A stretch of 64,000 bases of DNA, taken from the NCBI GenBank assembly GCA_963851445.1, contig CAWKPH010000001.1:553363-617362 (forward strand), read 5' to 3'. How positions within the stretch are numbered: position 1 is the first letter of the stretch; every line of letters begins with the position of its first letter. The translations under genes were made by a program, and so were the position numbers. The notes beneath the pieces are model-generated. The model was not told the DNA's origin, ran no database searches, and was given only the letters and a program-made list of their open reading frames with translations. Source of the stretch: an uncultured bacterium. Lineage in GTDB: Bacteria; Patescibacteriota; Minisyncoccia; Phycocordibacterales; Phycocordibacteraceae. This document shows positions 12,709 through 32,640 of this stretch, in pieces.

Positions 12709-12747
12709 AATATTTATAAAAAGAATGGCATAAAAAGGTAAAGAGAT

Positions 12748-13473: not shown

Positions 13474-13497
13474 ATGATGCTGACCTCAGACGGCACG

Positions 13498-15540: not shown

Positions 15541-15557
15541 ATTTTAAGTACTAAAAA

Positions 15558-16055: not shown

Positions 16056-16067
16056 AAATACTTAATT

Positions 16068-16631
16068 TTAGATGCGGAAATGAATTACTGAGGCGCGAAA
16101 TGAGAGGTGCGCAAGAACGATTCCTTGTACAAAATTTTTAATGGAAACGAGTAGCACCGCAATGAGGAAGAGAGTTACTGTTACTTCGACACCAGGAAAT
16201 GCCTGAAGGAGCGACAATGCAAAAACACCAAGATGTGAAGAGATAAGATCAGTATCGGAAATCAAGAGTGGCGCATAGCTCGTAAATCCTGTAGCGCTCG
16301 CTGCACGAACAAGTGCTGGTATAGCGAACATAAGCCCCGCTATGGAGCTTATGCCGGAAAGGGAAGACAGTACAAGTCGCGTACGCGCGTGGCGTTCACG
16401 TTCCCGCTCGAGCGCCAGACATATCCGCTCGCAAAGATACGTAGGTAGTTGCTCTTGCGGCAAAGCTCTAAAAAGCTCCTCATAATTCCTTCCCATATGC
16501 TGTATACGCAGTATAGCTCGGAAATGGTGCATTTTTAGAGAGTAATAGTCCCCATATCGATCTTGCTCAGAGACCCTAAAAAGGGTCCAGAACTTCGACT
16601 CCAGGACACTGCCTAGGTTGTAAGACGCCAA
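16068..16631 (-). CDS. Putative membrane anti-sigma factor
   Basis: It lies immediately downstream of the ECF sigma gene with a 5-nt gap. It has a soluble N-terminus and C-terminal TM helices. Confidence 0.4.
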   Translation of the reverse strand: MASYNLGSVLESKFWTLFRVSEQDRYGDYYSLKMHHFRAILRIQHMGRNYEELFRALPQEQLPTYLCERICLALERERERHARTRLVLSSLSGISSIAGLMFAIPALVRAASATGFTSYAPLLISDTDLISSHLGVFALSLLQAFPGVEVTVTLFLIAVLLVSIKNFVQGIVLAHLSFRASVIHFRI

Positions 16632-16636
16632 AAGCT

Positions 16637-17230
16637 TCAGGCCTCTGCTTCTCTTTTTCTGTATTTCTTTTCAAATTCCTTGCGTAGCGTTATAAGCGCA
16701 CGGCGATGAAGGCTCCGCACAGTATTCGCGGACATTTTGAGAATTTTTGCGATTTCTTCAAACGAAAGTTCTTGCTCGTAGCGCAGATTCAGTATCATCC
16801 GATCGCGCGGCCTAACTTCCTTCAAGGCCTCTTGAACTTCTCCTGCTTGTAGTGCGCGCTCGAAAAGTTCTTCAGGGAGTGGCTCAGGATCGGCGAGCGT
16901 ATCCATAAGTACATTACTGTCATCATCAGCATCGAACCGTGAGAAAGTAACCGATCTGCGCCTGCGCATAATGTCAGTTGCTGTATTTTTTGCGATTGCG
17001 AAGAGCCACGTACGCAGTGAACGTTTAGAATCAAAGCGATTCAAATTACGCCATGCTTTAAGGAATGTTTCCTGAACCGCATCCTGTGCGTCTTCGGTAT
17101 TTCCCATATACCGCACACAGAATGTATATAGTGCTTGAAGATGTCGATTAACAAGCTCTTGAAGTGCTTCGTCATTGCCACTCCGAGCCTTTTCTATGAG
17201 TTCCTGGTCGCTCTGTTGCTCGTCGGGCAT
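16637..17230 (-). CDS. ECF-subfamily RNA polymerase sigma factor
   Basis: Sigma-70 region 2 (DAQDAVQETFLKAWRNLNRFD) and region 4 (LSFEEIAKILKMSANTVRSLHRRAL) are present. Confidence 0.8.
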   Translation of the reverse strand: MPDEQQSDQELIEKARSGNDEALQELVNRHLQALYTFCVRYMGNTEDAQDAVQETFLKAWRNLNRFDSKRSLRTWLFAIAKNTATDIMRRRRSVTFSRFDADDDSNVLMDTLADPEPLPEELFERALQAGEVQEALKEVRPRDRMILNLRYEQELSFEEIAKILKMSANTVRSLHRRALITLRKEFEKKYRKREAEA

Positions 17231-17352: not shown

Positions 17353-19887
17353 TCAAACTGTTTTTAGCATGTCGTGTTTAATATCACTAAATGTTCCGTG
17401 TACCTTCTTGCCTGGGTTGAATATGCCCGATGGATCAAAAATACTTTTCGTCTCTTCAAAAAGCGCGACCATTTTGTCACCAAAAAGCATCGGGAGATAT
17501 GGAGTGCGAATAATGCCATCGTTATGTTCGCCAGTGGTCGTTCCCCCATATTTTATGACGAGCGCGTAAACTTTTGGGGCGAGGTCGATGACGACTTGAC
17601 GTACACTAGGCTTCGTAAGATCCATGAGTGGGATAATGTGGAAATTTCCGTTTCCAATGTGACCAGCGACTGTATAAATAAACCTATCTGAATATTCCGC
17701 AAGCAGCATGTCGAGTTCCGGAAGGAATTGTGGGTAGGTATCAGGGGGTACCACGAAATCATCGATAAAAGGCGATGCATAGAGACCATGTACATTCTTA
17801 CGAAGAAGGGCAAAGCTCTCGCGACGTACGATCCAGTATTTCTCCGACTCGCGTTCGTTTTTTTTGATACTCATCTGTAAACCCATGTCTCGAAGGGCAT
17901 CATGTGCTTCTTGTGCCCGTTGAAGCGCTTCTGTGGGGGTATCGGCAGAGAATTCTGCCATCAAAATAAGTTTGGGAACACCTCCGGAAATAACCATGGC
18001 AGTCTCCGGAATGAATGAAAGTCCTAGGCGAAGTGCGCGATTGAAGCCCATTTGCGAGAGCATTTGCGGCATGAATCTAATGGCAAGTTTAAAAGTCTGA
18101 TCATCATACGACTCAAATGATTCAGGATTGAAGGGAAGTACCCTGTGCACTATTTCTGGAAGTATCCTGAGATCTTTCAAGAAAATAACTAACATCGCAC
18201 GGTGACTTTCTTCTTTCACGAGTCGTAATTTTGCTTTGGTCATGAGAGCAAGCGTGCCCTGTGCCCCGCATATTAGACGCGCGAGATTAAAGGTACCTTT
18301 TCCGCTATGAATTACATTCCAAAGTGCGTATCCGGCAGAATTTTTCGATACTTTTGGTCTTGCATTTTGGATCACTTCGGCATTCTCCGTAATAAGTGCA
18401 TGCATCTTACGATAAATTTCGCCCTCGAAGTCCCGCTGGCGCTTCTTTTCTTCCAGTCCTGCCGGGTCAAGATCTTTAAAAGTCGTAAGTGTGCCATCTG
18501 AAAGCACCACCTCAATCTCTTCAATATAATCCTCAGTTTTACCATATTCAAGGGTGCGTTCGCCTCCTGAATTATTGTTCACGATACCTCCTATCGCACA
18601 GAGCTCGCGAGACGCAGGGTAGGAAGGAAGCACAAGATTCCCTCGAGCAAGTGTCTGTTTCTCAAAATCGCGATAGAAGACTCCTGGCTCGGCAACAGCA
18701 GAGCCGTGAGTTATGACGTGAGGTACCGTATCAGATTTTCTATCTGTTTCTTTGTTAATACTTATAATCCTGTTCATATATTTCAAAAAGACAGTGACGA
18801 TGGAATTCGTGAGTGGGCCTCCGCTCATGTCAGTTCCTGCCGATCGGCCAGTCAGGGAAACACTCTGGCCTGCATCTTTGGCAGCTCGTACGGTTTTTAC
18901 TAGCGCAACTACATCCTGTGTATCTTTGGGATATACAACGAGCGATGGCTTGATCTTGAAGAGACTTGTATCGCGACTATATTTTTCGATTTCAGACTCC
19001 GCATCGGTAACGTCACCTTTAATTGCCGACCGTATCTTTTCTTCAAGCTCGTTTGAGATATTTGATTGGGTGTCAGTTGTTGTAATGTCCTTCGTGATGA
19101 CCTTATCGTCACGGATCTCGAGCACTGTACTTACAGGTATCTCATCAAGCAAAGTCTTGATAAACGATGCAGTATCCAGTGGACCTTTTACTGCGTGGGT
19201 TGGAATATCTATTTTCGTAATTACTTCGTCATTACCTCCTTGTGTCAATCGATCTCCGACGTACAGCATTGCCGAAAGAGGCACATGTAATTCCTTTGCT
19301 AGTTGTTGTACGCCATAAGCTTTATCAATGCCTGGCTTTGTTACGTCAATCGAGGTCGCGCCCCCTATTTTCACATCAAAATCGGGCAAGAGCACCTTGA
19401 TCGCTTCCTGAAGTTTCCTTTTCTTTTCGCTGGTGGGGTCCCATCGACGCTTCTCGGCAATGGGTGCCTCCTGGCCGAGTGCGGAGATGGTAACTTGGGT
19501 TCCGCGAGTCTCAATTCGTTCACCATATGAAGGGAGAGAGAAATCGATGACTCCAGAATCTATCGCACCTTGTTCAATCGCTGTTTCTATCCGATCAATC
19601 TCTTTGGGATCAAGATCTTCTTCATATACCTTCGCCCAAGCCTGGTCATGATAAGCGAACATTTCCGCACCTGAAGTTGGGAAGAGGTAAAGATTGCGGA
19701 GTTCAGCAGAGGGCGGCAGTTCCTCGGTGACTTGATGGTGAAGCTGCTCCAATTTTTCACCCGTTATTACGGCAAGAATTGTTTTATTCAAAAGCTCTGC
19801 AATAAGTTTTGCCATATCGGAAGTTATTGGCACCTTACTTTCTGAAAGGGTATCGTCGAGATCAAATATGATAGCTTTCGGGATCAT
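17353..19887 (-). CDS. Fusion protein: N-terminal HAD-IIB (phosphomannomutase-like) phosphatase domain + C-terminal FAD-linked oxidase (GlcD/PCMH-type FAD-binding)
   Basis: HAD motif I IFDLDDTL and motif IV GDRLTQGGNDEV. The FAD-binding PCMH motif is GRSAGTDMSGGPL...AIGGIVNNNSGG. A C-terminal GGTTTGEHNDG motif is also present. Confidence 0.6.
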   Translation of the reverse strand: MIPKAIIFDLDDTLSESKVPITSDMAKLIAELLNKTILAVITGEKLEQLHHQVTEELPPSAELRNLYLFPTSGAEMFAYHDQAWAKVYEEDLDPKEIDRIETAIEQGAIDSGVIDFSLPSYGERIETRGTQVTISALGQEAPIAEKRRWDPTSEKKRKLQEAIKVLLPDFDVKIGGATSIDVTKPGIDKAYGVQQLAKELHVPLSAMLYVGDRLTQGGNDEVITKIDIPTHAVKGPLDTASFIKTLLDEIPVSTVLEIRDDKVITKDITTTDTQSNISNELEEKIRSAIKGDVTDAESEIEKYSRDTSLFKIKPSLVVYPKDTQDVVALVKTVRAAKDAGQSVSLTGRSAGTDMSGGPLTNSIVTVFLKYMNRIISINKETDRKSDTVPHVITHGSAVAEPGVFYRDFEKQTLARGNLVLPSYPASRELCAIGGIVNNNSGGERTLEYGKTEDYIEEIEVVLSDGTLTTFKDLDPAGLEEKKRQRDFEGEIYRKMHALITENAEVIQNARPKVSKNSAGYALWNVIHSGKGTFNLARLICGAQGTLALMTKAKLRLVKEESHRAMLVIFLKDLRILPEIVHRVLPFNPESFESYDDQTFKLAIRFMPQMLSQMGFNRALRLGLSFIPETAMVISGGVPKLILMAEFSADTPTEALQRAQEAHDALRDMGLQMSIKKNERESEKYWIVRRESFALLRKNVHGLYASPFIDDFVVPPDTYPQFLPELDMLLAEYSDRFIYTVAGHIGNGNFHIIPLMDLTKPSVRQVVIDLAPKVYALVIKYGGTTTGEHNDGIIRTPYLPMLFGDKMVALFEETKSIFDPSGIFNPGKKVHGTFSDIKHDMLKTV

Positions 19888-21812
19888 AGAGGAATATGTA
19901 GCGATGGAAGAAGCCGTTTGATAATTTCCTTTTTCGAGAGTGTTGCGACCCCCGTCGCGCAGTCGCCCCCGCCGTAATACACATAGAGCGTATCGTCACG
20001 CAACACAGCACCACACGAAAAGACGACGTTATGGACCTGTCCCTTACGCTCCCATTCAAGTATAGGTTCCAGGATTGGCATTGCCGTTCGAGAAATCACA
20101 CTTATACCGGCTTCCGCATCGAGAAGTGCCGCACCAAGTCGATATGCAAAATCGGGCCCCACCGCGTGGTATAGATAGAGCCACCCTTCTTCAACCCGTA
20201 TCGGTGGAGCAGCGCTTCCCACTTTTATGCCATCCCACATACCAAGCCTTGGAACCATAAGATCGATGCTGCGTTTTATCTTGGCAGTATCCATGGCATG
20301 TGGTGGAGGAAATTCATCAAGGAAATCGACACATATATTCGGATCAATCCGATGGATAAGCATAGTCTTTCCGCCAATTGGTTCAGGAAATATACAGAAG
20401 TCCTTGTCGTTTATGCCCACAGGGCTCAAAAATTGTGGTGACGACCAGTTGAAGTTCCTGGCAAGGAAATCATCGACAGAAATCGTTGAGAGCGCGCCAT
20501 GCGCGAGAACACCATCAAATGCAGTATAGGTGAGATAGAGTACATCACCGATGCGGGTAAGACGAGGATCTTCGGTACCACGTGCTTCTAAAACTTCGCG
20601 TGGTTTATATACTGGGTCAGGTAAACGTTCATCTATGTGGATGCCGTCCTTCGATTGTGCATATCCAAGGCGTGAAATCCCATCCTCTCCCATAGCACGG
20701 TAAAGGAGATGTATCGACCCTTCGAGTTCGATCGCGGCGGCATTGAACGTGGATAGTGATTCCCATGGATGCGAAGGATCTGGAGAAAGTATTGGTTGCT
20801 CGCTGACTCGGTTCATAAATTGAGCACGCTTATCCGCATACATGCAAGAAAGAAGGTCACTAAGAGAAAGCGCAGCTTCAGCCGCTACGGTATCCGCAGC
20901 TCCGTAAAATATGCGCAGAGTATCGCCATTCACGAGCGCGCCGGAAGGAAATACTACATTGGAGACGACGCCATACTTTTCATAAGGTTCTTCGGGTACC
21001 AAGAAGGGAAACTCGGTCTTTGCGAGTATCTGTTGTGGATCGTCAGAATCTAGTAGCAGCGCTTCGATTCCAAAGATCCGATTTCGTTCATCATAATAAT
21101 TTTGAATATGCGAATAGACAAGAAGCCATCCTTCTTTGGTCAAGATGGGAGTGGCGCCAATCTCTACGTGCTCAGTATCAGCACGCCTTACATCTGGAAA
21201 GGCATGATTCTCGAGATGCTCGTGCCATACATTCCAAAATTCGGGATTCCAAAAATCTTCAATATTCGATGCGTGTGCAAGACCAATGGTGGGACGTGGG
21301 TGTTCCTCGGTAAAATCAGTGTGGGCGGTTACCAGCATCACTACTTGGCCGTTGATGCGTTCGGGGAAAAGCGTAGCTGCCTTCGCATTGAAAGGTGTGA
21401 CGAGATGTCTTTCAGTCAGCTCGTCAGGGCGATCGCCTATGGCGACCGCCGCTTTGATGTTATCTGGACCGAACGGATATCCACCTAGCGCAGTGTAGAA
21501 AACATACCACTTACCCTCAAAGAACGTCGCGCGCGGATCTTCGCATCCGTATGTCTCCCAATCTTCTTTAGGGGCAATGACCTGTTTTCGATTTTCGAAC
21601 CCCCCGTCTTTATGCAAACATGTATAACCAATTGTTGAAAAGCCGCGTCCTGGGGTACGAATTTGATCTGGCTCAGCCATCGCTCGATAAAAAAGATGTG
21701 TGTCGCTTTCATGCACAACCGCTGAGGGATTAAAAGTGCCAATCGCTTCAAATGCATTCGCTCGCACAGGCGAGAGAAGTGGATTCCTTGGTGAACGGAA
21801 GACCGATAACAT
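19884..21812 (-). CDS. Tandem double GH130 (glycoside hydrolase family 130, beta-mannoside phosphorylase-like) protein
   Basis: Two GH130-like repeats are present. Each carries the G-x-EDPR motif (YGCEDPRATFF and RGTEDPRLTRIG) and a LFYRAM... N-terminal motif. Confidence 0.7.
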   Translation of the reverse strand: MLSVFRSPRNPLLSPVRANAFEAIGTFNPSAVVHESDTHLFYRAMAEPDQIRTPGRGFSTIGYTCLHKDGGFENRKQVIAPKEDWETYGCEDPRATFFEGKWYVFYTALGGYPFGPDNIKAAVAIGDRPDELTERHLVTPFNAKAATLFPERINGQVVMLVTAHTDFTEEHPRPTIGLAHASNIEDFWNPEFWNVWHEHLENHAFPDVRRADTEHVEIGATPILTKEGWLLVYSHIQNYYDERNRIFGIEALLLDSDDPQQILAKTEFPFLVPEEPYEKYGVVSNVVFPSGALVNGDTLRIFYGAADTVAAEAALSLSDLLSCMYADKRAQFMNRVSEQPILSPDPSHPWESLSTFNAAAIELEGSIHLLYRAMGEDGISRLGYAQSKDGIHIDERLPDPVYKPREVLEARGTEDPRLTRIGDVLYLTYTAFDGVLAHGALSTISVDDFLARNFNWSSPQFLSPVGINDKDFCIFPEPIGGKTMLIHRIDPNICVDFLDEFPPPHAMDTAKIKRSIDLMVPRLGMWDGIKVGSAAPPIRVEEGWLYLYHAVGPDFAYRLGAALLDAEAGISVISRTAMPILEPILEWERKGQVHNVVFSCGAVLRDDTLYVYYGGGDCATGVATLSKKEIIKRLLPSLHIPL

Positions 21813-21814
21813 AG

Positions 21815-22987
21815 TTATACGCCTATTGGCATACTGAGCACAGTGGGGGAAAGAGCCTGAGGCTCATGCTTGAGAAGCTTGTTCACAAATTGCGAAAGAG
21901 AGGTTGTGGCGCTGCAAACGAAATTGTCTGCGGCCCCGTAATACACGGTGAGCCGGTCATTCTCTTTGGCTGTGCCACAGGCATACACAACGCCTGGTTT
22001 TGCACCACCCATCTCATATTCTGTATTGGGTGTAAGCACGGGTATAGGACTGCGTACAATTACCTTTGTAGGGTCATTCTTTTCAAGAAGCATCGCTCCA
22101 ATTTGATAGAGATACTCGCTGCTGGTCGCATGGTAAAAGAGCAGCCACCCCTTATCAGTTTTAACTGGTGCTGGTCCTGCGCCACGCACCCAACTATCCC
22201 AGTGATTCGCGCGCCCTTCGGTCCTGGCTCCTCGTGGACTTTCAATATAAGGTTCTGACGTACCGACTGAGCCAAGATCTTTTCGATAGGCGACCTGAAC
22301 ATTTGGTGAAATGCTATGAAGTATGGCAAACATGCCATTTATTTTCTCGGGGAAAAGCACCCAATTCTTGTGGACTTCATTTTGCCGCGAAAGGAATACC
22401 GGCTTTGACCAATTCCAACGCTTCTTTTTCAGATCGGAAAGCGCAATTGAGGTAGTTGTGATACGCACCGAATCCCAGTTATGAAAGGCCGAAAATGTGA
22501 GATAGACACGATCACCCATGAGTACTGCACGTGGATCTTCTGCGCCACCCCATGACCCACCTGATGCGATTAGTTCAGGATAATGTGCATGGGCATATGC
22601 GCGACGCATCGCATCCAAATGTGGATCAGGCCCTTCAAATGCAAAGACAGGATAGGGAAGACGTTCATCGATATGTATACCGTCCTTTGAAGATGCGTAG
22701 CCAATGCGTGAGACGCCATCGCTGCCAATTGCTCGGTAAAAGAGATGAGTTTTTTCGCCATCACTTATCGCAGCAGGATTCATTACCGCCTCCTTCTCAA
22801 AATCATAACCACTCGGATGAAGAAGGGGATTGCCTTCGTTGCGCTTGAGCGAAAAATCTGCCGTGTCTATGGCATGCTGTTTCTCCATCCGCTTTGGCTG
22901 ACGGAATAATTCCCAAGCACCCCATAAGAAAAGAAATGTGGTCCCCAGCGCGAGCATAATTGCGAGGAATAAGATGATGATACTCAT
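21815..22987 (-). CDS. GH130-family glycoside phosphorylase/hydrolase with N-terminal TM anchor
   Basis: Motifs HLFYRAIGSDGVSRIGYASSKDGIHIDERL and GGAEDPRAVLMGDRVYLTFSAF, after an N-terminal hydrophobic helix. Confidence 0.7.
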   Translation of the reverse strand: MSIIILFLAIMLALGTTFLFLWGAWELFRQPKRMEKQHAIDTADFSLKRNEGNPLLHPSGYDFEKEAVMNPAAISDGEKTHLFYRAIGSDGVSRIGYASSKDGIHIDERLPYPVFAFEGPDPHLDAMRRAYAHAHYPELIASGGSWGGAEDPRAVLMGDRVYLTFSAFHNWDSVRITTTSIALSDLKKKRWNWSKPVFLSRQNEVHKNWVLFPEKINGMFAILHSISPNVQVAYRKDLGSVGTSEPYIESPRGARTEGRANHWDSWVRGAGPAPVKTDKGWLLFYHATSSEYLYQIGAMLLEKNDPTKVIVRSPIPVLTPNTEYEMGGAKPGVVYACGTAKENDRLTVYYGAADNFVCSATTSLSQFVNKLLKHEPQALSPTVLSMPIGV

Positions 22988-23002: not shown

Positions 23003-23356
23003 TTATACACGTCCGAAATCATCCTCGACACGTTCAATGTCGTTCTCATCAAAGTTTCCGATTGAAATCTCGAGTACCGCTACGCCCTGCTCACCGCCCC
23101 TCAGTCTATGGAGTGTTTCTGGGGGAATTTCAATTTCGTCGTTCATACTGATCTGCCATTCCTTATCACCAACATGAGCAACTCCGTCTCCTCCAATGAC
23201 CTTCCACCATTCTGAGCGGTGCGTATGCTTTTGGAGAGATAGTTCCTTGTTAGCGTCAATGTGCAGAATCTTTACAGTCGAAGGTTCATTTTCAGTAAAT
23301 CGTTCAAACGATCCCCAGGGGCGATGCTCCTCATACCGATTAGACAAAAGGGACAT
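23003..23356 (-). CDS. Cupin-type mannose-6-phosphate isomerase (type II PMI C-terminal cupin domain-like)
   Basis: RPWGSFERF...HRSEWWKVIGG...GD cupin motifs. It is the first gene of the mannoside operon. Confidence 0.65.
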   Translation of the reverse strand: MSLLSNRYEEHRPWGSFERFTENEPSTVKILHIDANKELSLQKHTHRSEWWKVIGGDGVAHVGDKEWQISMNDEIEIPPETLHRLRGGEQGVAVLEISIGNFDENDIERVEDDFGRV

Positions 23357-23483: not shown

Positions 23484-24236
23484 ATGGAACGGATACCTTT
23501 TTTCTCGATTGTAGTTCCTGCCCATAATGAGGAAGCATACATAGGACAGACGCTTGAAAAGCTCTGTGCGCTCGAGTACCCGAAGGATTTCTATGAGGTA
23601 ATTGTCGTCGAGAACGGTTCTGACGATGCTACTCTTATGAAAGCAAGAGAATTTGAGCACGGAAGGGATACCCCTATCAAAGTATTTACCTGTAAGGAAC
23701 CAGGCGTTTCAAGAGCGCGAAATATGGGTAGCACGAAGGTTCGTAGCGATGCGGACTGGGTATTTTTTCTTGACGCCGATACCTTTCCTGACCCACCCTT
23801 TTTGCGATCGTTCCTACGATACCTTGACGCGAATGCATCTAAAAAATTTGTCGTCGGCACAGTATCCCTTGGGCCTTATCCCTCAACCATAGTCATGCGT
23901 GTGATATACGCGGTTACGAATGTATTCTTTTCATTCTCCGGTGCCGCTTACGGCGGCGCACTCCTCATCCGCCGTGAACTACTCGAGTCGATTTCGTTTG
24001 AAGAAGATATTCATGTTGGTGAGGAGGCATCACTCATCACATGCGCAAAACGAAAGGGACGATATTTTTTCTTTTACACTGCATACGCTCACACATCAAC
24101 ACGCAGATTTCAGAATGGTGGCTGGAAAAAAATCCCAATTTGGATAGGAATGTGGATATTTGCTATGATAGTTCCAAACCATGCCTCCATTTCATCCTCA
24201 ATCCATCGTCGCTTCAAGTACAAAGCAGTTCGCTAA
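23484..24236 (+). CDS. Family 2 glycosyltransferase
   Basis: FSIVVPAHNEE...VVENGSDD...FFLDAD (GT-A DxD). Confidence 0.75.
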   Translation: MERIPFFSIVVPAHNEEAYIGQTLEKLCALEYPKDFYEVIVVENGSDDATLMKAREFEHGRDTPIKVFTCKEPGVSRARNMGSTKVRSDADWVFFLDADTFPDPPFLRSFLRYLDANASKKFVVGTVSLGPYPSTIVMRVIYAVTNVFFSFSGAAYGGALLIRRELLESISFEEDIHVGEEASLITCAKRKGRYFFFYTAYAHTSTRRFQNGGWKKIPIWIGMWIFAMIVPNHASISSSIHRRFKYKAVR

Positions 24237-24972
24237 ATTGCATCAAGCAACAACGCATTTTGCATCTCGATTCATCACGACCCCAGTCGCCGCATTCATT
24301 GCTTGGCTCAGTGTTCATACACACATTGCATATCTAGCACTTTTTATCGGTGCCTATCTTGATGCACTTATTGGTCCTTCACTTTTAATACCCGGTGAAG
24401 TCGTGTTCCTTTCGGGTTCGATTCTTGCGGGAAGACACGTTCTTCTTATTTGGCTCGTAGCTCTTTATGTATATCTGGGAGGCATTTTGGGGGATACAAC
24501 AAGCTATTGGATTGGGCGCGCGCTCGGCATTTCTCTTTTTCACGAACGTAAGAAGTTTCTGAACATAAGGCACTATCACAATGCGCGGAAGTTTGTCGAC
24601 AAGTACGGTCCGAAAGCAATTTTTTTTGCTCGACTCGTAGGCCCATTCTCAAAGATCGCACCAACCCTTGCCGGTATTCTCGAAATCCCTTTCGGGACTT
24701 TTCTCCTATATAACATCCCAGGCGTATTGGTTGGTATCGGGGAGTTCCTTCTCATCGGATATATTTTTGGGAATCGCTATGAGCTTGTCCTGTGGCTCTT
24801 TGAGCGATATACGATTCTATTTTTTATTGCGCTTTTTGCAGCACTCCTTATCCATTGGCAATATAAAAAACACCGCGCTCGCAAGAAGCGAAATGGGCTG
24901 AGATACCAAGGATGGGGAAGACAAAACAAAAGATTCCTAAGGAGTAATGGAATTCAGCAGGAAGTGGGGTAG
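24181..24972 (+). CDS. DedA/SNARE-associated family membrane protein (start may be downstream of the annotated overlap)
   Basis: The GEVVFLSGSILAG motif and a multi-TM topology. Confidence 0.7.
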   Translation: MPPFHPQSIVASSTKQFAKLHQATTHFASRFITTPVAAFIAWLSVHTHIAYLALFIGAYLDALIGPSLLIPGEVVFLSGSILAGRHVLLIWLVALYVYLGGILGDTTSYWIGRALGISLFHERKKFLNIRHYHNARKFVDKYGPKAIFFARLVGPFSKIAPTLAGILEIPFGTFLLYNIPGVLVGIGEFLLIGYIFGNRYELVLWLFERYTILFFIALFAALLIHWQYKKHRARKKRNGLRYQGWGRQNKRFLRSNGIQQEVG

Positions 24973-24984
24973 TATAGGTAGCGT

Positions 24985-25845
24985 ATGCTCACATACACGC
25001 AAGCATTCATTCTAGGACTCGTGCAGGGTGTGACTGAACTTTTTCCGGTTTCGAGCCTCGGCCACAGTGTACTTCTTCCCACACTTCTGGGCTGGCAGAT
25101 ATCGCAAAGTGCCCCTATGTTTGTCGAATTTCTAGTCATCACGCACGTTGCGACCGCACTTACCCTACTCGCATACTTTTGGCAGGACTGGATACGCCTT
25201 GCTAAGGGTTTTATTCGGTTGATTTTTACACAAAGTACTAGTCCGACAGATCCGTATAGCCGGCTTGCATGGCTTCTTGTGGTCGCCACCATTCCAGCAG
25301 GTCTTCTGGGCCTTCTCTTCCAGAATTCGATTGAGAACTTATTTTCTGCACCACGTATCGTTGCTGGAATGCTGATTTTGAACGGATTACTGCTCTATAT
25401 AGCTGAAAGCTTAAAACGCCGTCGCACACGTCTCGAAAACACGCGTATCTCGGGTGATGTTGCGATAGTAACTAAACTTTCGTGGCTTTCTGCGTTCGGC
25501 ACGGGACTCATGCAAGCACTCGCACTTATTCCAGGATTCTCTCGTACCGGGGCTTCGCTCACAGGAGGTCTCCTTTCTGGACTTGATCGCGAAAGCGCAG
25601 CACGTTTCTCGTTCCTTCTTGCAACGCCCCTCATACTTGCCGCTGGAGCACTTAAATTGCCACAACTCTTCCATGCTCAGTATCCTGTTATGCCGCTTCT
25701 TTTTGGCGCGCTTATTGCCGCGTGCGCCTCATACCTTTCTGTAGCATTTCTTACGCGGTACTTTAGAACGAACACACTCATACCATTTGCATGGTACTGT
25801 ATCGTACTAGGCGGGCTATCTCTTATCGCTCTTGTCTATTTTTAA
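24985..25845 (+). CDS. uppP: Undecaprenyl-diphosphatase
   Basis: BacA/UppP motifs GLVQGVTELFPVSSLGHS and GFSRTGASLTGG, with 8 TM helices. Confidence 0.85.
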   Translation: MLTYTQAFILGLVQGVTELFPVSSLGHSVLLPTLLGWQISQSAPMFVEFLVITHVATALTLLAYFWQDWIRLAKGFIRLIFTQSTSPTDPYSRLAWLLVVATIPAGLLGLLFQNSIENLFSAPRIVAGMLILNGLLLYIAESLKRRRTRLENTRISGDVAIVTKLSWLSAFGTGLMQALALIPGFSRTGASLTGGLLSGLDRESAARFSFLLATPLILAAGALKLPQLFHAQYPVMPLLFGALIAACASYLSVAFLTRYFRTNTLIPFAWYCIVLGGLSLIALVYF

Positions 25846-25944
25846 TTCTGAGTATCCTTATAGTCACAAGGATCGTATTTATGTTTTCGACCTATACAAA
25901 ATCATGCTAGCGTATAAGAGAAAATGTGACACAGTGAAAAAATC

Positions 25945-26886
25945 ATGAAATTTTCATGCATTTCTGCGGTTATCCCAGTTCATAATGAGGCAGGGAACCT
26001 GAAAAGACTCCACGAGGAGCTCGTCCAGGTACTTTCGACTTGTAGCTCAGAGTACGAAATTATTTATGTAAACGATGCAAGTACTGATGGATCGCTCGCT
26101 GAGCTCCAAACATTGAAGGATTGTACGATTATTAATTTGCGTCGCAAATACGGTCAGGCGACTGCACTCGATGCCGGTTTCAAGGCAGCGAAAGGAGATT
26201 TGATCGTCTCGCTTGACGGCGACGGTCAGAATGACCCCGCAGATATTCCAAAACTACTCCGTGAGCTTGAGGACAAGAATTTCGATGTCGTTACTGGCTG
26301 GCGCAAGCAACGCGCTGACAATCATGGTATTCGAGTCCTTACGCGTATTGGTCGTGCATTCCGGCGGTTTCTCATCCAGGATCCAGCTCATGACACCGGG
26401 TGTACCCTCCGAGTGTATCGCGCCGAAGCTATAAAGAGCCTTGAACTCGGGGGTGAAATGCATCGCTACATACTCGCACTCTTGCGCTGGAAGGGATTCA
26501 CTGTTGGAGAAGTCGTCGTGAGGGACCGTCCACGCTTACATGGCAAGAGCAAATACGGCTATGGCAAGGCTGTACGAGGGCTTATTGATCTCATATACAT
26601 TTGGTTCATTTACAAATATTCACAGCGCCCGCTCCACCTCTTTGGCTATATGAGCTTTGCTGCGCTTGCGGCCGGCGCCATATCCCTTGTTCTCACTATT
26701 TATGACCGCACGGTACTGGGTATCCACCTGAATGACGATGGCTGGTTTTATATCACATTCTTTCTTTTAATCGCGGCAATAATGCTATTCTCATTTGGCA
26801 TCATCATTGATCTATTGCTGCGCATCTACCTCAGTACCTCGTCCGTGCAAAAACCATACTACGTTAAGGATATTCAAAAGATATAG
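25945..26886 (+). CDS. Polyprenyl-phosphate glycosyltransferase (GT2, DPM1/GtrB/ArnC-like) with C-terminal TM helices
   Basis: ISAVIPVHNEAGN...YVNDASTDGS...LDGDGQND, with two C-terminal TM segments. Confidence 0.75.
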   Translation: MKFSCISAVIPVHNEAGNLKRLHEELVQVLSTCSSEYEIIYVNDASTDGSLAELQTLKDCTIINLRRKYGQATALDAGFKAAKGDLIVSLDGDGQNDPADIPKLLRELEDKNFDVVTGWRKQRADNHGIRVLTRIGRAFRRFLIQDPAHDTGCTLRVYRAEAIKSLELGGEMHRYILALLRWKGFTVGEVVVRDRPRLHGKSKYGYGKAVRGLIDLIYIWFIYKYSQRPLHLFGYMSFAALAAGAISLVLTIYDRTVLGIHLNDDGWFYITFFLLIAAIMLFSFGIIIDLLLRIYLSTSSVQKPYYVKDIQKI

Positions 26887-26898
26887 TTTTAGATAACT

Positions 26899-27264
26899 CT
26901 ACTTTTTCTCATTCCAACGCCATGCCGCGTGCTCACCAGTTTTGTAACAAACCCAAAGGACAATGATGGTAATAAGGATGATCCATATAAAGAAACCAGC
27001 GACCACAAGAGCTGAAGCGGGAGTAGAGCCAAGTGCAATAGGATCGTTCGAGAATTGAAGAGTGAAGAGAAGGACCGAGCCCGCAATTATAAGGGCATAG
27101 CCGAGGGTCACAAACCATCCCTCAATGGAGATGGGTACCCACCCAAGGCCATATCTTTTTGCCCTAAACCAGGGCCGTTTTTGATATCTTTTCATGGGTA
27201 GCAAGTGTAGTCCGTGCAAAGAGAAAAAGCAAGTCTTTAGGCCATATTTTCTCGCTTTGTCCAT
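26899..27264 (-). CDS. Small membrane protein (hypothetical)
   Basis: 121 aa with two TM helices. Confidence 0.4.
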   Translation of the reverse strand: MDKARKYGLKTCFFSLHGLHLLPMKRYQKRPWFRAKRYGLGWVPISIEGWFVTLGYALIIAGSVLLFTLQFSNDPIALGSTPASALVVAGFFIWIILITIIVLWVCYKTGEHAAWRWNEKK

Positions 27265-27380
27265 TCAAAGTTCCATAGAAATTGCTTGACAAAAAGGGTC
27301 CCTAGATGATAGGATAGCCCTATGGGTTAGATAGGTCAGGAGGCTCTATTCGTAGAGCCTTTCGCCTTTCTACCTCACTT

Positions 27381-28016
27381 ATGCATAAGATCCTGCCCCT
27401 CATGGGGCTACTTCTTCTAGCAAATAGTGTCTTAGCGCCAACAATGGCCAATGCCCAGACAGCGCCCGGCTCGTTTACCCCGAGTTCGACTAGCGCCCCA
27501 ACAGGCATGACGACCAACCAAGCGGTTCAGGAATCCACAGCGACACCACTCAGTCTCTCGGTGACGCTTACCTCGTATAATGCGGTTCCTGCTCAAACTA
27601 GCCCGACGCCGTGGATCACGGCGAGCGGTGCCCCCTCTGACTCGCAGGTAATCGCAGCACGATCTCACGATCTTGCGGGCGAGCTACCATACGGGACGAT
27701 TATCGCCATTGAGGGTCCGACCTCTTCTGGTGGGTATACCTGTGGCTATAGCGACGTTCAGGGTCTTATCGGGTATCGCGTAATTGCCGACGAGATGAAT
27801 ATCCGAATGAAAAACAAGGTCGACGTGATGCTTAATCAATACGATACAGTTCCTGTGGGAGACCGATATATAAATCCTGCAGTAGCCCTCGGTGCCTGCG
27901 CTGGAACACACATTCAAATAGTGGGGTACGTTAACCCCCAACATATTCCGAGCACCCAGGCAGGACTTGCAGCTCTCGTAACAGGTGGTCAAGATCTCGC
28001 ATTTGCAAAGTTCTAA
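27381..28016 (+). CDS. Secreted protein, possible 3D (MltA/RlpA-like) domain
   Basis: Signal peptide MHKILPLMGLLLLANSVLA. VIAARSHDLAGELPYGTIIAIEG and the later D/N-rich segment weakly resemble a 3D domain. Confidence 0.35.
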   Translation: MHKILPLMGLLLLANSVLAPTMANAQTAPGSFTPSSTSAPTGMTTNQAVQESTATPLSLSVTLTSYNAVPAQTSPTPWITASGAPSDSQVIAARSHDLAGELPYGTIIAIEGPTSSGGYTCGYSDVQGLIGYRVIADEMNIRMKNKVDVMLNQYDTVPVGDRYINPAVALGACAGTHIQIVGYVNPQHIPSTQAGLAALVTGGQDLAFAKF

Positions 28017-28061
28017 TAGTTTCGATCACTCTCCCAAGATAATCTGCTACACTATTCGGAC

Positions 28062-29537
28062 GTGGAAAGGTGGTTTTCGGTAATGAAGAACCAGCGCGCC
28101 CTAGGCGCAACGATCCTTATTGTTGCCATACTTATAAGTGCTTCGGTGATCTTACTCTATCGACTTGGCGCTGAACCACTTCAGGACTACGATGAAGCAA
28201 CCTATGCGGAAATAACATCTGAAAGCCTCGCTTCACACCACTTCTTCTCTTTTACCTTCCTTGATAATCCTTATTTTAATAAACCGCCTCTTCTTTTTTG
28301 GTTAACCGATGCAAGTAAGTCGATCATTTCGAGTCCTGAACTAGCTGACCGTCTACCTTCAGCGCTCTCAGCCTTGGCGCTTATCGCGTTAATGATACTC
28401 ATTACATACGAGGCAACAGGAAACCCATTCGCTGCAGCCTGGGGCGGCGCCATATTACTGACTACGAGCGCATTTATCGAGCCCGCGCGGCAGGTCCGAT
28501 TCGATCTCCTCGTCACATTTTTCGATCTCCTCGCAGTATATGCCTTTTGGAAAGCTTTCGATCCTCTAAACTCTAGAAATTCTTTTCGTGGTAGGTGGTT
28601 TTTAATCTTTGGAATCTCAGTCGGGCTTGCCGTGCTTGCCAAAGGTCCTATTGCGCTCTATGCGGTCACGCCCATTTTTGGGATCGCCACTGTATATCAG
28701 AATTTCAAATGGATTCGAAACCCCTCATTTTGGTGGGGCATATTGCTATCGCTTTTGATCATTCTTCCCTGGCATCTCTATGAAACATATCGATTTGGGT
28801 TAACCTTTTGGAAGACCTATCTTGTTGATCAGCTTCTTAATCGTGTTGATGAAGTATTTTTTACTATACATCCTACTAATATGGATTATATTTCGTATGC
28901 ATTCGGTTTTGGCGCACCTTGGCTTGCAATTTTTTGCGTAAGTATTATCGTCGCAATCTTCATATGGAACCGCATATCTCCTTCTGTTCGGGCACTTTTT
29001 GCTGCCTCTGTTATTGGAGTCTTTTCGGTCTTTTCGGTTGATTTTATAACTAAAACAAAGGCATTTAATTATCTGATCCCTTTATACCCCTTTGTAGCGC
29101 TTTGCGTCTCACTCATGGGATATGAAATTGGGCGCCTGCGATTCCCTAGGATCCGGACTTTGCTCAGTTTGATTGCAATAGTACTTACGGGAATGGGTCT
29201 TTGGCTCACGATTTTCAATGCATTTCATATCAATTCTTATTACGCGAGTGAGGTATCGCTCGCTGATCAGGAGAAAGCGATCGGGACGCTTCTCAAAGAA
29301 GATCATGCTCCTACCTTCTACGTATACGACACGACCACCCTGGGTTCAATAATGTTCTATAGTGGACTCGTAAAACCAATCTTCATGGGAAGCGCGACAG
29401 CAGCGGTGTCGCAGGGATCATTTGTTCTCTACGAAACTATGCAGCACGATGCGCTCATTGCAAAATACCCCAATTTGTCAGGCATGCCGGTGTATAACGG
29501 AGCCTCCCTCAGCCTAGTTCAAGCCCAGCATGTTTAG
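28062..29537 (+). CDS. GT39/ArnT-like (PMT family) polyprenyl-phosphate-sugar-dependent glycosyltransferase
   Basis: About 11 TM helices, an N-terminal acidic DE motif (DYDEATYAE) in the first loop, and a periplasmic C-terminal domain. Confidence 0.65.
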   Translation: MERWFSVMKNQRALGATILIVAILISASVILLYRLGAEPLQDYDEATYAEITSESLASHHFFSFTFLDNPYFNKPPLLFWLTDASKSIISSPELADRLPSALSALALIALMILITYEATGNPFAAAWGGAILLTTSAFIEPARQVRFDLLVTFFDLLAVYAFWKAFDPLNSRNSFRGRWFLIFGISVGLAVLAKGPIALYAVTPIFGIATVYQNFKWIRNPSFWWGILLSLLIILPWHLYETYRFGLTFWKTYLVDQLLNRVDEVFFTIHPTNMDYISYAFGFGAPWLAIFCVSIIVAIFIWNRISPSVRALFAASVIGVFSVFSVDFITKTKAFNYLIPLYPFVALCVSLMGYEIGRLRFPRIRTLLSLIAIVLTGMGLWLTIFNAFHINSYYASEVSLADQEKAIGTLLKEDHAPTFYVYDTTTLGSIMFYSGLVKPIFMGSATAAVSQGSFVLYETMQHDALIAKYPNLSGMPVYNGASLSLVQAQHV

Positions 29538-29856
29538 TTGAGCGTATCTGAAGCATCATGTTCCGGACGTAGATGAAAAGCGAGGCAATCTGTGCCGTTG
29601 TGAAGACAATATCTCGTATGTGGATGGAATAAATGAGGATAAGCACCGAGCCACCAAGGGATAGATACCAGAAGGACATTGGAATCACTACTGCCTTTTC
29701 TTTTTCGGATTTAATCCACTGTATGATGAATCGAAGAAAAAAGACGAATTGGCCGAAAAAACCAAAAACAACCCAAGGATTAAGTAGCTCGGCACTAAGC
29801 GTTGCAATGGAAGTCATGAAAATAAACGTAAGGTACAGTATACTCTGTAAATGCAA
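29509..29856 (-). CDS. Lipid-A-disaccharide-synthase N-terminal-like (LAB_N) membrane protein
   Basis: FFGQFVFFLRFIIQWIKSEKEKAVVIPMSFWYLSLGGSVLILIYSIHIRD matches the LAB_N signature. Confidence 0.6.
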   Translation of the reverse strand: MHLQSILYLTFIFMTSIATLSAELLNPWVVFGFFGQFVFFLRFIIQWIKSEKEKAVVIPMSFWYLSLGGSVLILIYSIHIRDIVFTTAQIASLFIYVRNMMLQIRSTKHAGLELG

Positions 29857-30294
29857 AAAAGTATTGATAAACAGAAACGTAAGAAAAATAGTAAATTCAC
29901 ACCCGGAAATTTCGAATTAAAAGTCAAAAGATCAAGTGCTGGGCTAGGACTCTTTGCGGGTCAAGATATTCCAAAGGGGAAGTGTGTAATCGAATATTTT
30001 GGTAGGATTGTTAGCAAAAAGGAGGAAGAGACAAGTCGCAGCAAATATCTCTTTGAGATACGCAAAGGAAAGACTATAGACGGTGCGGCGAGAGTTAATA
30101 TTGCTCGTTACGTAAATTATTCACATCGTCCCAATTGTGAATCGGAAATCTACAAAGATAAGGTTTACTATTTTTCGATACGACCTATCAAAACAGGCCA
30201 GGAACTTACGGTCGACTACGGGAAGGAATATTATGATGAACACATAAAGCCTTATGGCTGTCGCTGTGAGATATGCGTACAAAAAGCTCGGTAA
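29851..30294 (+). CDS. SET-domain protein (lysine methyltransferase-like) with post-SET Cys cluster
   Basis: NIARYVNYSHRPNCE and ELTVDYGKEYY motifs, with C-terminal CRCEIC. Confidence 0.6.
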   Translation: MQKSIDKQKRKKNSKFTPGNFELKVKRSSAGLGLFAGQDIPKGKCVIEYFGRIVSKKEEETSRSKYLFEIRKGKTIDGAARVNIARYVNYSHRPNCESEIYKDKVYYFSIRPIKTGQELTVDYGKEYYDEHIKPYGCRCEICVQKAR

Positions 30295-31191: not shown

Positions 31192-31932
31192 ATGAAAACA
31201 CTACAAGTCGTACTAGTTCTCATAGCGGTTATCGTTGTTGCTGGTGGCATGTACTACTTTTTTGTTCGAAGTATGCCAGCTGTTTCTCAGAGCAGCTTCG
31301 CATCCTCAACTTCACAAACGGCCTCAAGTACCGCCTCTTCTACGTCAGGTACTCCAAATCCTACTGTAAGCAGTACTGTTGCAGGTATGAGTGAATATAG
31401 CGATTTGACCTACGGTTTCACATTCTGGTATCCAAGCGCCCTTCAGGTGGTCCCATCTACTACCGATGACAGTGCTAGTTTCCCCGGCGGTACCGAAGTA
31501 GAAAAGCTACAGGTTGGTCCTGAAGGAGCCATTACTATTGCCGTTGTGAATTCTCCAGCGAGCACAATAACTGATGAACCATTTAATCATGCAAGCCCTA
31601 TACCCCAGACAAAATATTTCTACGATGAGATGACAGGGAAGTTGATGGTTACCTATCCCCAAGGCGCAGATGGTGGAAATTCCGCTACAACAACAGTAAA
31701 AGTCTCAAAAACCACTATTTCAGGCTTGCCGATGTTGCCAAGCGGACTCCGTTTTGATGCCACCATAATTCCTCTTAGCACAACCCGGTTTCTTGTAATC
31801 AATGATGGGGGAGGGAGCTCATTCACACCAGATCTTGCGGCAACAATTGCACAAACAGGCGCATCCATAAACTCTCTTGCTCTTATGACGGCCGTTCAGG
31901 CAGAAAGGACCGCTTACAATGTGAGTAAGTAA
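31192..31932 (+). CDS. Membrane-anchored Ser/Thr-rich extracellular protein (hypothetical)
   Basis: An N-terminal TM helix, then a S/T-rich linker (SSTSQTASSTASSTSGTPNPTVSST). Confidence 0.45.
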   Translation: MKTLQVVLVLIAVIVVAGGMYYFFVRSMPAVSQSSFASSTSQTASSTASSTSGTPNPTVSSTVAGMSEYSDLTYGFTFWYPSALQVVPSTTDDSASFPGGTEVEKLQVGPEGAITIAVVNSPASTITDEPFNHASPIPQTKYFYDEMTGKLMVTYPQGADGGNSATTTVKVSKTTISGLPMLPSGLRFDATIIPLSTTRFLVINDGGGSSFTPDLAATIAQTGASINSLALMTAVQAERTAYNVSK

Positions 31933-32016: not shown

Positions 32017-32640
32017 TTACCAGTGGATCGAGTCCCACCAATGGCGTATGTAGGTTATTGGTTTAGTCCAGTAGGTGTAAGTTGGGGGAGCTGTGTAGTT
32101 ATAGGCCGGATATACTGCAGCTGGCTCGTAGTAGCTCTGAGGCTGTGGGTAATAGGTTACTGGCTGCTGATAATAGGTTGGATATTGTGCAGGATAGTAT
32201 TCAGTTTGGCATGTATTTGTGCCGCCAGGACCTGAAACTGACATTGTGAACGTCTCATAGGGATATGCAGTGACATACGCACTTCCTTCAGTGTTTACCT
32301 CACCAAGGCTTGAAATATAGCCTGAGTATGCGCCATATGAAGTCCACGAGAGCGTCCCTTGTACTTGCGATCCGTCATAGGTATTCGGCGTCGTGATGCT
32401 TATGGTACAGGTCGGGAGTTGATACGAATACTGTTGGGGGTAATATCCGTTCGAATATTGCTGTTGATACTCGGATGGATAGTATGTTTGCTCGTAATTA
32501 TAGTCAGGTGCCGTGGAAGAATAATAATCCTGATACCCATTGGGTCCCATGACCTGGGCGTGAGCAGCGAGTGAAGGCACTATAAGCACTGCGAGACTTA
32601 TAAATACTACGGAAATCTTACGTATGCTAAACATAAGCAT
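32017..32640 (-). CDS. Secreted Tyr/Gln/Pro-rich low-complexity protein
   Basis: Signal peptide. YYPQQYSYQ-type repeats flank a central folded segment, with more repeats at the C-terminus. Confidence 0.45.
   Translation of the reverse strand: MLMFSIRKISVVFISLAVLIVPSLAAHAQVMGPNGYQDYYSSTAPDYNYEQTYYPSEYQQQYSNGYYPQQYSYQLPTCTISITTPNTYDGSQVQGTLSWTSYGAYSGYISSLGEVNTEGSAYVTAYPYETFTMSVSGPGGTNTCQTEYYPAQYPTYYQQPVTYYPQPQSYYEPAAVYPAYNYTAPPTYTYWTKPITYIRHWWDSIHW

Follow-up and report, generated by a model that had tools for sequence, protein, structure and literature searches.

A predicted LAB_N-assisted glycosylation unit beside a separately conserved DedA/UppP unit in a Patescibacteriota chromosome

The 64,000-nucleotide stretch of DNA analyzed here (hereafter the window; positions 553,363 to 617,362 of contig CAWKPH010000001.1, from an uncultured member of the Patescibacteriota) carries, between positions 23484 and 29856, a group of genes related to lipid-linked glycosylation. 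This interval consists of two neighboring, separately conserved units in a Parcubacteria-type chromosome of the candidate phyla radiation (CPR). Unit A comprises a short family 2 glycosyltransferase (GT2), a DedA membrane protein, and the undecaprenyl-diphosphate phosphatase UppP (23484-25845), while unit B comprises a GtrB/ArnC-like GT2, a small membrane protein of the LAB_N family, and an ArnT-like glycosyltransferase of the GT-C type (hereafter GT-C; Table 1). We propose that unit B is a three-component glycosylation system in which LAB_N assists the delivery of the lipid-linked donor, and give this two-unit explanation a probability of roughly two in three. A preliminary description of the interval had named six genes organized by the three-component logic of polyprenyl-phosphate-sugar pathways. 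All six were recovered in place, each in the Pfam family assigned to it, and the three-component logic is borne out by the full-length relationship of the larger GT2 to GtrB and ArnC, by the ArnT residues kept in GT-C, and by the synteny and fusions of LAB_N across phyla. The same description treated the genes as a single module, which the separate conservation of the two units contradicts.

Unit B is envisaged to act in three steps. The GtrB/ArnC-like GT2 would make a polyprenyl-phosphate monosaccharide at the membrane's cytoplasmic face; LAB_N, probably as a dimer, would carry the lipid-linked sugar outward or hand it to the transferase, filling the place of the GtrA- or Wzx-type flippase of known systems; and GT-C would move the sugar onto an extracytoplasmic acceptor. 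Unit A would most likely return and dephosphorylate the polyprenyl carrier, feeding a pool common to unit B and wall synthesis, or might instead flip a lipid product of the short GT2. As a gene set this is a known kind of system, and its variant feature is the SemiSWEET-fold LAB_N partner, found in a bacterium expected to be without lipid A. No GtrA or Wzx domain was detected by Pfam among the genes at 23.0-30.3 kb, where no small membrane partner other than LAB_N is conserved; a Wzx gene belongs to a separate polysaccharide cluster at a distance of 29 kb. We hold with high confidence that LAB_N belongs to the GT2/GT-C system, and give about even odds to LAB_N itself being the flippase. The families, the conserved active-site residues, the modeled folds, the synteny, and the fusions are observations, and from them the translocation step, the sugar, the acceptor, and any functional tie between the two units are inferred.

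Donor synthase and transferase of unit B

The 313-aa GT2 aligns full length (residues 6-308) to structures of ArnC (9hwj, 9bhc, 8vxh) and GtrB (5ekp), with E=1e-28 to 1e-26 and 98-104 bits, and the aligned region takes in the LDGDGQNDP metal/nucleotide motif as well as the C-terminal membrane helices. In comparison, the Pyrococcus dolichyl-phosphate-mannose (Dol-P-Man) synthase is matched at 47 bits over the N-terminal 116 residues only. Because of this difference in coverage, the protein is classified as a polyprenyl-phosphate glycosyltransferase of the GtrB/ArnC type, and it is predicted to be a polyprenyl-phosphate monosaccharide synthase of the cytoplasmic face. Scores against the NCBIfam models for ArnC (124 bits) and PgfS (105 bits) are both under cutoff. 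Earlier labeled a DPM1/GtrB-like GT2 with C-terminal membrane helices, the protein is a full-length homolog of GtrB and ArnC, with an alignment that runs through the membrane region.

For GT-C, a profile built from 41 homologs matches ArnT (5ezm) in the PDB at E=5.4e-65 and fungal protein O-mannosyltransferases (PMTs) at ~1e-4. The AlphaFold2 (AF2) model has a predicted local distance difference test score (pLDDT) of 94, and a Foldseek search places ArnT first (5ezm/5f15; E ~5e-15, template modeling (TM) score 0.71-0.73), with ALG12, AglB, OST, and Pmt4 well behind and Pmt4 eighth. In a pairwise alignment, in which the chain numbering equals the native numbering + 3, ArnT residues D55/E56, K85, D158, K203, R270, and Y345 are each matched by the identical residue in GT-C; among these, R270 is presumably a phosphate ligand. 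The equivalents (D37, E38, K67, D141, K187, R254, and Y330 in the numbering of database entry P0001) are invariant or nearly so in the family alignment, and D37/E38, which follow the first membrane helix, lie within a first-loop acidic motif, YDEATYAEI. In ArnT, D55/E56 form the active-site motif, D158 and K203 contact the substrate, K85 and Y345 contact the carrier phosphate, and R270 is described only as being at the edge of an unresolved loop (PMC7801869).

The likeness to ArnT has limits. The Zn ligands of ArnT (E84, H265, and H267) are not conserved in GT-C, and the score against the NCBIfam ArnT equivalog NF009784 (63.5 bits) does not reach the cutoff of 567. The Pfam PMT family PF02366 matches at 68.2 bits (cutoff 22.7), a model which also captures ArnT-like proteins, and a Pfam scan of the 484-aa protein returned no MIR domain. 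Taken by profile and predicted fold, GT-C is a member of the ArnT/GT83 branch and not of the PMT/GT39 branch; membership in the latter was rejected on the ~1e-4 match (against 5e-65 for ArnT), the eighth rank of Pmt4 by fold, and the absence of a MIR match. The composite GT39/ArnT/PMT-like label given previously is therefore kept in its ArnT part and dropped in its PMT/GT39 part. The acidic first-loop motif, which had been put forward as the point on which the assignment would turn, is present, and the protein clusters with ArnT and not with unrelated membrane proteins. GT-C is predicted to move a sugar from a lipid carrier to an acceptor at the outer face.

Fold and genomic context of LAB_N

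The LAB_N protein matches PF07578 at 96 bits (cutoff 26.7) over profile positions 2-71 of 71, and the protein is highly conserved, with 22 invariant positions among 25 sequences. Its AF2 model, of moderate confidence (pLDDT 75), has three membrane helices. In a Foldseek search of the PDB, the top 14 matches of this model are all SemiSWEETs, followed by SWEETs; the target-normalized TM-scores to the SemiSWEETs are 0.56-0.80, and the root-mean-square deviation is 1.7-3.6 Å for 13 of the 14. LAB_N thus models as a SemiSWEET fold, a three-helix 1-3-2 bundle. A family hidden Markov model (HMM) likewise has its best PDB matches in the E. coli and Leptospira SemiSWEETs, full length, at E=0.2-0.5 only; in the corresponding alignment to 4x5m/4qnc, Q33 pairs with the Gln of the PQ motif, and the position of the Pro holds Val or Ile. 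From the positive-inside pattern, the N-terminus is likely outside and the C-terminus inside, an orientation consistent with all of the fusions seen.

The LAB_N signature has been placed in the PQ-loop/SWEET/MPDU1 group (PMC3281891). In this group, scrambling of glycolipids has been demonstrated for the PQ-loop protein CLPTM1L, and the use of Dol-P-Man and dolichyl-phosphate glucose requires MPDU1 in a way that is not yet understood (PMC9169118). A search of the literature found no function assigned to LAB_N (PF07578, COG3952, IPR011499).

Gene neighborhoods were examined in 80 LAB_N loci, obtained by a scan with one genome per species. A GtrB-like GT2 gene adjoins LAB_N in 31 of these, directly upstream on the same strand in 28, and often contiguous with it or sharing a few bases. 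Immediately downstream, 17 loci have an ArnT/PMT_2-like GT-C gene (eight convergent, as here, and nine co-directional). At least one of the two partners is a neighbor in 38 of the 80 loci, and both are in 10. When the open reading frames (ORFs) flanking LAB_N were scanned independently with Pfam, GT2 was the top family upstream (28/75) and PMT_2 the top family downstream (15/73). Compared with the 31 GT2 and 17 GT-C neighbors, only 8 GT2 and 7 GT-C matches were present among ~636 ORFs elsewhere in the same loci (odds ratios of 19 and 11, uncorrected for phylogeny). A contiguous GT2/LAB_N/GT-C triad occurs in Parcubacteria, Planctomycetota, and one alphaproteobacterial metagenome-assembled genome (MAG); in Gottesmanbacteria and Omnitrophota the three genes run in the order GT-C, GT2, LAB_N, and the Saccharibacteria loci have only one of the two partners (GT2 or GT-C) beside LAB_N.

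The wider family includes about 2,490 clusters at 50% identity, and most of its top matches are proteins of 200-240 aa that carry LAB_N twice in tandem, in the manner of a SWEET. Twenty of the longer matches were scanned for fusions. Twelve are fusions of >500 aa, and in nine of these two LAB_N units are N-terminal to a GT-C domain (five of PMT_2 type and four of GT87; e.g., P0203, P0251, and P0224). The remaining three carry, one each, LpxB, an LpxL-type lipid A acyltransferase domain, and a calcineurin-like metallophosphatase. Two further proteins (457 and 475 aa) have LAB_N at the C-terminus, behind an SdiA-regulated beta-propeller domain, and in another, of 288 aa, the fusion partner of LAB_N is a methyltransferase. 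The LpxB, acyltransferase, and metallophosphatase partners suggest that LAB_N may serve more generally to bind or present glycolipids.

Three side observations concern these family data. The LAB_N fusions other than those to GT-C are found in entries P0332, P0232, P0302, P0311, P0343, and P0329. A different conserved context, in which LAB_N accompanies an AccD-like gene, is represented by loci that include L051, L053, L057, L060, L065, L074, L076, and L079. Nine loci labeled "uncultured Gammaproteobacteria" (L016, L019, L034, L036, L038, L039, and L046-L048) encode a LAB_N 52-70% identical to the CPR query and carry CPR-like GT2/LAB_N pairs, so that these MAGs may have been assigned to the wrong taxon.

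More broadly, LAB_N might be a translocator, or an obligatory donor-delivery subunit, for polyprenyl-phosphate monosaccharides in many bacteria, i.e., a protein of SemiSWEET fold in the role of GtrA, Wzx, or ArnE/F and a prokaryotic counterpart of MPDU1, with the CPR ArnT-like enzyme and LAB_N together decorating an envelope component other than lipopolysaccharide (LPS). We advance this generalization tentatively, at somewhat under an even chance. The passage of polyprenyl-phosphate monosaccharides across membranes is not yet well understood, and GtrA-type flippases have been assigned mostly by inference; the role of MPDU1, with which LAB_N shares a fold superfamily, in human glycosylation disorders is likewise still unexplained. 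Since LAB_N is genetically tied both to a donor-making GT2 and to a donor-using GT-C, it offers a simple system in which donor crossing could be tested, and its context gives an uncharacterized family a concrete, testable function. The ArnT-like enzymes of CPR bacteria, for their part, would need an acceptor other than lipid A, in envelopes that are essentially uncharacterized.

The short GT2/DedA/UppP unit

A short GT2 gene (196-250 aa) directly precedes DedA in all five genomes examined (the window, L090, L091, L092, and L093); in a further relative, L001, the locus ends within the DedA gene, and its upstream neighbor there was not seen. UppP follows DedA only in the window, L001, and L090, which are close relatives, and here a gap of 12 bp separates the two genes. 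In L091-L093 a second short GT2 takes the place of UppP, and the short-GT2/DedA pair is present without UppP or any GT-C.

Among NCBIfam models, the short GT2 matches TIGR04283 best (91 bits; cutoff 182). The nearest models are TIGR04283/MftF-like, EpsD, HpnB, and CruG-type GT2s, all far under their cutoffs, and PDB matches are confined to the N-terminal ~120 residues. By these comparisons it is not of the GtrB/ArnC type and resembles lipid- or polymer-directed GT2s. UppP is matched by PF02673 at 252 bits over profile positions 1-256 of 257, and by NCBIfam equivalog models at 295 and 282 bits, just under the cutoffs of 363 and 394. The sequences VTELFPVSSLGH and PGFSRTG, which we take to be the UppP motifs, are both visible in the protein. 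DedA scores 53 bits against the NCBIfam DedA model (cutoff 236) and 46 bits against the UptA equivalog NF052604, short of its cutoff of 250.

DedA proteins are undecaprenyl phosphate (C55-P) flippases (10.1101/2022.02.03.479048, PMC11474028), and a C55-P flippase of this family in P. aeruginosa is reported to be important for polymyxin resistance (PMC12893004). The DedA protein here is a candidate polyprenyl-phosphate scramblase, similar to UptA, or a candidate glycolipid scramblase. Carrier recycling is the most economical reading of unit A, given that DedA proteins flip C55-P and UppP dephosphorylates undecaprenyl diphosphate; flipping of the short-GT2 product is the alternative role, given that DedA scores far under the UptA cutoff and that its conserved partner is the short GT2. 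DedA and LAB_N had both been proposed as flippase helpers. For LAB_N the tie to GT2 and GT-C stands, while DedA belongs to a separate short-GT2 unit and, being conserved separately with that enzyme, is likelier to be a carrier recycler or short-GT2 partner than a helper of the ArnT-like transferase.

Comparison with known systems

Multi-component systems of this kind are known for enterobacterial O-antigen (GtrA/GtrB/GtrC) and for the teichoic acids of Gram-positive bacteria (CsbB/GtcA/YfhO and GtlA/GtcA/GtlB; PMC8035078). Unit B shares with GtrABC and CsbB-GtcA-YfhO a membrane-anchored GT2 of the C55-P-monosaccharide type, a small multi-helix protein, a GT-C with an acidic first loop, and genes that are often clustered. 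It differs in having a SemiSWEET-fold LAB_N in place of GtrA or Wzx, an ArnT-like rather than a GtrC/YfhO-like GT-C, and a CPR host. With the ArnC/ArnE-ArnF/ArnT pathway it has in common a GT2 closest to ArnC and a GT-C closest to ArnT, with the same catalytic and phosphate-binding residues. In contrast to that pathway, there are no aminoarabinose (Ara4N) genes among the ORFs scanned, lipid A is not expected to occur, the Zn ligands of ArnT are not conserved, the scores are far under those of the equivalogs, and LAB_N occupies the place of the ArnE/F-type flippase of the small multidrug resistance (SMR) family, none of which is found at the locus.

The eukaryotic DPM1/MPDU1/PMT arrangement (and those of ALG and PIG) similarly combines a donor made at the cytoplasmic face, a GT-C on the far side, and a protein of the PQ-loop/SWEET superfamily, although LAB_N is a half-size, three-helix unit, and the GT2 here is nearer to ArnC/GtrB than to Dol-P-Man synthase. 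In the GacI/GacJ/GacK/GacL system of Streptococcus pyogenes, a three-helix protein is likewise encoded right after a GT2, and a GT-C carries out the final transfer; however, GacJ is a DUF2304 protein that is fused to GT2 in some species, GacI has no membrane helices, and GacK is a Wzx flippase, whereas LAB_N is found fused to GT-C. Finally, unit A resembles recycling by UptA (DedA) and UppP/BacA in that DedA stands beside UppP, which would fit dephosphorylation on the outside followed by the return of C55-P; in contrast to UptA, the DedA protein here is far under the UptA cutoff, and its conserved partner is the short GT2 and not UppP.

Weighing the two-unit explanation

Several observations weigh against the two-unit explanation with LAB_N-assisted transfer. 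In the window the genes of unit B are spread over three transcription units with two unrelated genes in between. About half of the LAB_N loci, e.g., those of WWE3, have neither a GT2 nor a GT-C neighbor, and in nine loci, mostly from Planctomycetota/Phycisphaerae, LAB_N follows an AccD-like carboxyltransferase gene and not a GT2. The sugar-binding residues of the SemiSWEETs are not conserved in LAB_N, where the Trp is Ile or Leu and the Asn is Gln, and the LpxB, acyltransferase, and metallophosphatase fusions imply a need for LAB_N as an anchor or lipid presenter, rather than as a flippase. For unit A, the DedA and UppP scores fall under the NCBIfam equivalog cutoffs, and the unit is separated from unit B in L001 and unlinked to it in L003 and L090. 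The expected absence of lipid A, lastly, is extrapolated to this genome from that of a Parcubacterium.

The linkage of the units bears directly on whether the grouping is partly coincidental, such that DedA and UppP would carry out housekeeping recycling of the peptidoglycan carrier, the short GT2 would make an unrelated glycolipid, and only the GtrB-like GT2, LAB_N, and GT-C would cooperate. In L001, ~9 kb of unrelated genes (pilus and two-component) separate unit A from the GT-C/LAB_N unit; L003 has the GT-C/LAB_N/GT2 triad alone, without unit A; in L090 a different GT2/Wzx set comes after unit A; and the pair without UppP or GT-C in L091-L093 points the same way. Set against this are the adjacency of the two units in the window and the reported importance of the P. 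aeruginosa DedA flippase for polymyxin resistance, a role which we presume to be tied to the ArnC/ArnT pathway. We judge the truth of this proposal to be evenly balanced.

LAB_N could also be an accessory or adaptor protein similar to GacJ, anchoring or activating GT2 or other lipid-sugar enzymes and presenting the lipid to them, with flipping carried out by something else or by the GT2 itself. The usual position of LAB_N directly downstream of a GT2, often with translational coupling, is that of gacJ after gacI, and GacI is stimulated by GacJ, itself a protein of three helices (10.1101/180810; PMC8035078). The fusion partners of LAB_N include LpxB, a lipid A enzyme of the cytoplasmic face, as well as an LpxL-type acyltransferase domain and a metallophosphatase, and it has been suggested that a Dol-P-Man synthase could flip its own product (PMC12992685). 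GacJ nevertheless comes from another family (DUF2304), whose fusions are to GT2, whereas no LAB_N-GT2 fusion was present among the 20 proteins scanned and the nine GT-C fusions involve enzymes whose active sites face outward. Furthermore, the GT2 here has membrane helices of its own and so differs from GacI, and the SemiSWEET/PQ-loop fold is that of a transporter or scramblase. We consider a purely accessory LAB_N doubtful, and retain the two-unit explanation in which it delivers the donor.

Sugar and acceptor

The preliminary description regarded a mannose- or hexose-based system as plausible from the proximity of a mannoside operon. Upstream of unit A, and divergent from it, are genes for a cupin phosphomannose isomerase (PMI-C) protein, two proteins with three GH130 domains between them, and a fusion of phosphomannomutase (PMM) and FAD-linked oxidase. 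This operon has no GDP-mannose pyrophosphorylase domain and is not beside the short-GT2/DedA unit in any of the four relatives inspected (L090-L093). A mannose assignment drawn from these neighbors was rejected as unsupported, because the neighborhood is not conserved, a pyrophosphorylase domain is missing from it, and the GT2 has closer kin in ArnC/GtrB than in Dol-P-Man synthase; the sugar may nevertheless be mannose.

The stand-alone PMI-type cupin (23003-23356) precedes the GH130 genes (19884-22987, minus strand), which encode a 642-aa protein with two GH130 domains and a 390-aa protein; the latter has an N-terminal membrane helix followed by a positive stretch, suggesting a mannoside phosphorylase or synthase that is cytoplasmic but anchored to the membrane. 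The last gene of the operon (17353-19887, minus strand) encodes an 844-aa protein that combines a eukaryotic-type phosphomannomutase of the HAD group with an FAD-linked oxidase (FAD_binding_4 and FAD-oxidase_C), which is an unusual combination.

The acceptor is expected not to be lipid A, because a Parcubacterium genome is reported to be without lipid A/LPS genes, in a study that describes the envelopes of CPR bacteria as unresolved (PMC5220378). No Ara4N (ArnA/ArnB/ArnD-like) or Lpx family was detected in a scan of 60 ORFs of the window, a set that left out ~19 ORFs of at least 150 aa between 37.5 and 55 kb. Candidate acceptors include a surface glycopolymer, a membrane glycolipid, and the polymer of the Wzx/GT2/GT4 cluster at 58.4-63.8 kb. 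More speculatively, the acceptor could be a Ser/Thr-rich secreted protein such as the 211-aa protein encoded directly upstream of GT-C on the same strand, which might otherwise be a partner of the system. The 211-aa protein has a signal peptide, a linker rich in Ser, Thr, and Pro, and a C-terminal domain that is conserved, with no Pfam match and no relative by sequence in the PDB; our impression of a likeness to a 3D/DPBB cell-wall-binding domain is an assumption on our part.

This protein is of interest with respect to a PMT-like role for GT-C, i.e., protein O-glycosylation of Ser/Thr-rich secreted proteins, which we consider unlikely. Its position directly upstream of GT-C is conserved in three relatives (L001, L011, and L012, 57-75% identity), the gene at 31192-31932 specifies a second surface protein whose linker is Ser/Thr-rich, and GT-C passes the gathering score of the Pfam PMT family. 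The profile and fold comparisons described above nevertheless group GT-C with ArnT and far from the PMTs, the protein has no MIR domain, the 211-aa protein is absent from the more distant triads L003 and L006, and Ser/Thr-rich linkers are common enough to be unspecific as evidence. A genuine ArnT adding aminoarabinose to lipid A was rejected as highly improbable: ArnT is the closest solved relative and its key residues are all kept, but the equivalog score, the unconserved Zn ligands, the absence of Ara4N and Lpx families among the 60 ORFs scanned, and the CPR homologs of GT-C (with a Parcubacterium genome devoid of lipid A genes) all stand against it.

Some other genes encode possible surface glycosylation targets or glycan-related functions. 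The 31192-31932 protein (plus strand) is membrane-anchored with a long Ser/Thr-rich linker and no family match, and a secreted Tyr/Gln/Pro-rich protein, also without a family match, is encoded at 32017-32640 (minus strand); both are possible targets. The polysaccharide cluster at 58434-63819 (plus strand) encodes a Wzx-type flippase followed by GT2, GT4, GT2, and GT4 proteins. The guanine-cytosine (GC) content falls to ~36% at 62-64 kb, and the cluster may either make an acceptor polymer or be a horizontally acquired glycan locus.

Locus layout and neighboring genes

Table 1. Protein-coding features of the interval 23484-29856, in window coordinates.
Feature	Position	Strand	Length	Family match
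Short GT2	23484-24236	+	250 aa	Pfam GT2, 92 bits
DedA/VTT-domain membrane protein	24181-24972	+	263 aa	Pfam VTT_dom, 57 bits (cutoff 33.9)
UppP/BacA undecaprenyl-diphosphate phosphatase	24985-25845	+	286 aa	Pfam BacA, 252 bits
GtrB/ArnC-like membrane-anchored GT2	25945-26886	+	313 aa	Pfam GT2, 105 bits
Small two-helix membrane protein	26899-27264	-	98-121 aa	No Pfam or NCBIfam match
Secreted protein	27381-28016	+	211 aa	No Pfam match
ArnT-like GT-C	28062-29537, likely start 28083	+	491 or 484 aa	Pfam PMT, 68 bits; PMT_2, 56 bits
LAB_N (PF07578)	29509-29856, likely 29509-29817	-	115 or 102 aa	Pfam, 96 bits

Two genes of the interval, those for the small two-helix membrane protein and the secreted protein, were absent from the preliminary description. 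The likeliest start codon of the GT-C gene is the ATG at 28083, based on a Shine-Dalgarno-like box (GGAAAGGTGG) upstream and on agreement with entry P0001; for LAB_N the shorter, 102-aa gene is most likely, as in entry P0097. The gene orientations give at least four transcription units, so the interval is not one operon, and a single-operon reading was rejected. The GT-C and LAB_N genes are convergent, with a 29 bp overlap of their 3' ends; the overlap is 20-76 bp in close relatives (L001, L003, L010-L014, L041, L059, and L073), while in L006 and L023 the genes abut without overlapping. This conserved antisense overlap may couple the expression of the two genes. A consensus scan of the window for promoters and terminators gave no more sites than shuffled sequence and was therefore left out of the operon definition.

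The window is otherwise ordinary chromosome, encoding DnaG, RpoD, HisRS, and a helicase-nuclease, and scans of it for tRNA and Rfam families returned no matches. The nearest homologs of GT-C, LAB_N, and DedA are from Patescibacteria/CPR genomes (Parcubacteria, Kaiserbacteria, Paceibacterota, and Minisyncoccia). The small membrane protein at 26899-27264 is called as a 98-aa gene in L005 and has no homolog that could be found in other LAB_N loci; its membership in the system is doubtful.

Divergent from LAB_N, with start codons 33 bp apart, is a gene for a 147-aa SET-domain protein (29851-30294, plus strand), which is also a neighbor of LAB_N in L001, L011, and L012. Just past the mannoside genes, an operon at 11488-17230 (minus strand) encodes an extracytoplasmic function (ECF)-type sigma factor, a HlyD-like fusion protein of 680 aa, and an ABC exporter of the MacB type, together with two small proteins, of which one matches DUF5666 weakly. 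At 51887-53953 (plus strand), where the GC content falls to 42.5%, a protein with HATPase_c and DUF4325 (STAS-like) domains and an LPD3-domain protein may belong to a mobile or defense-related island.

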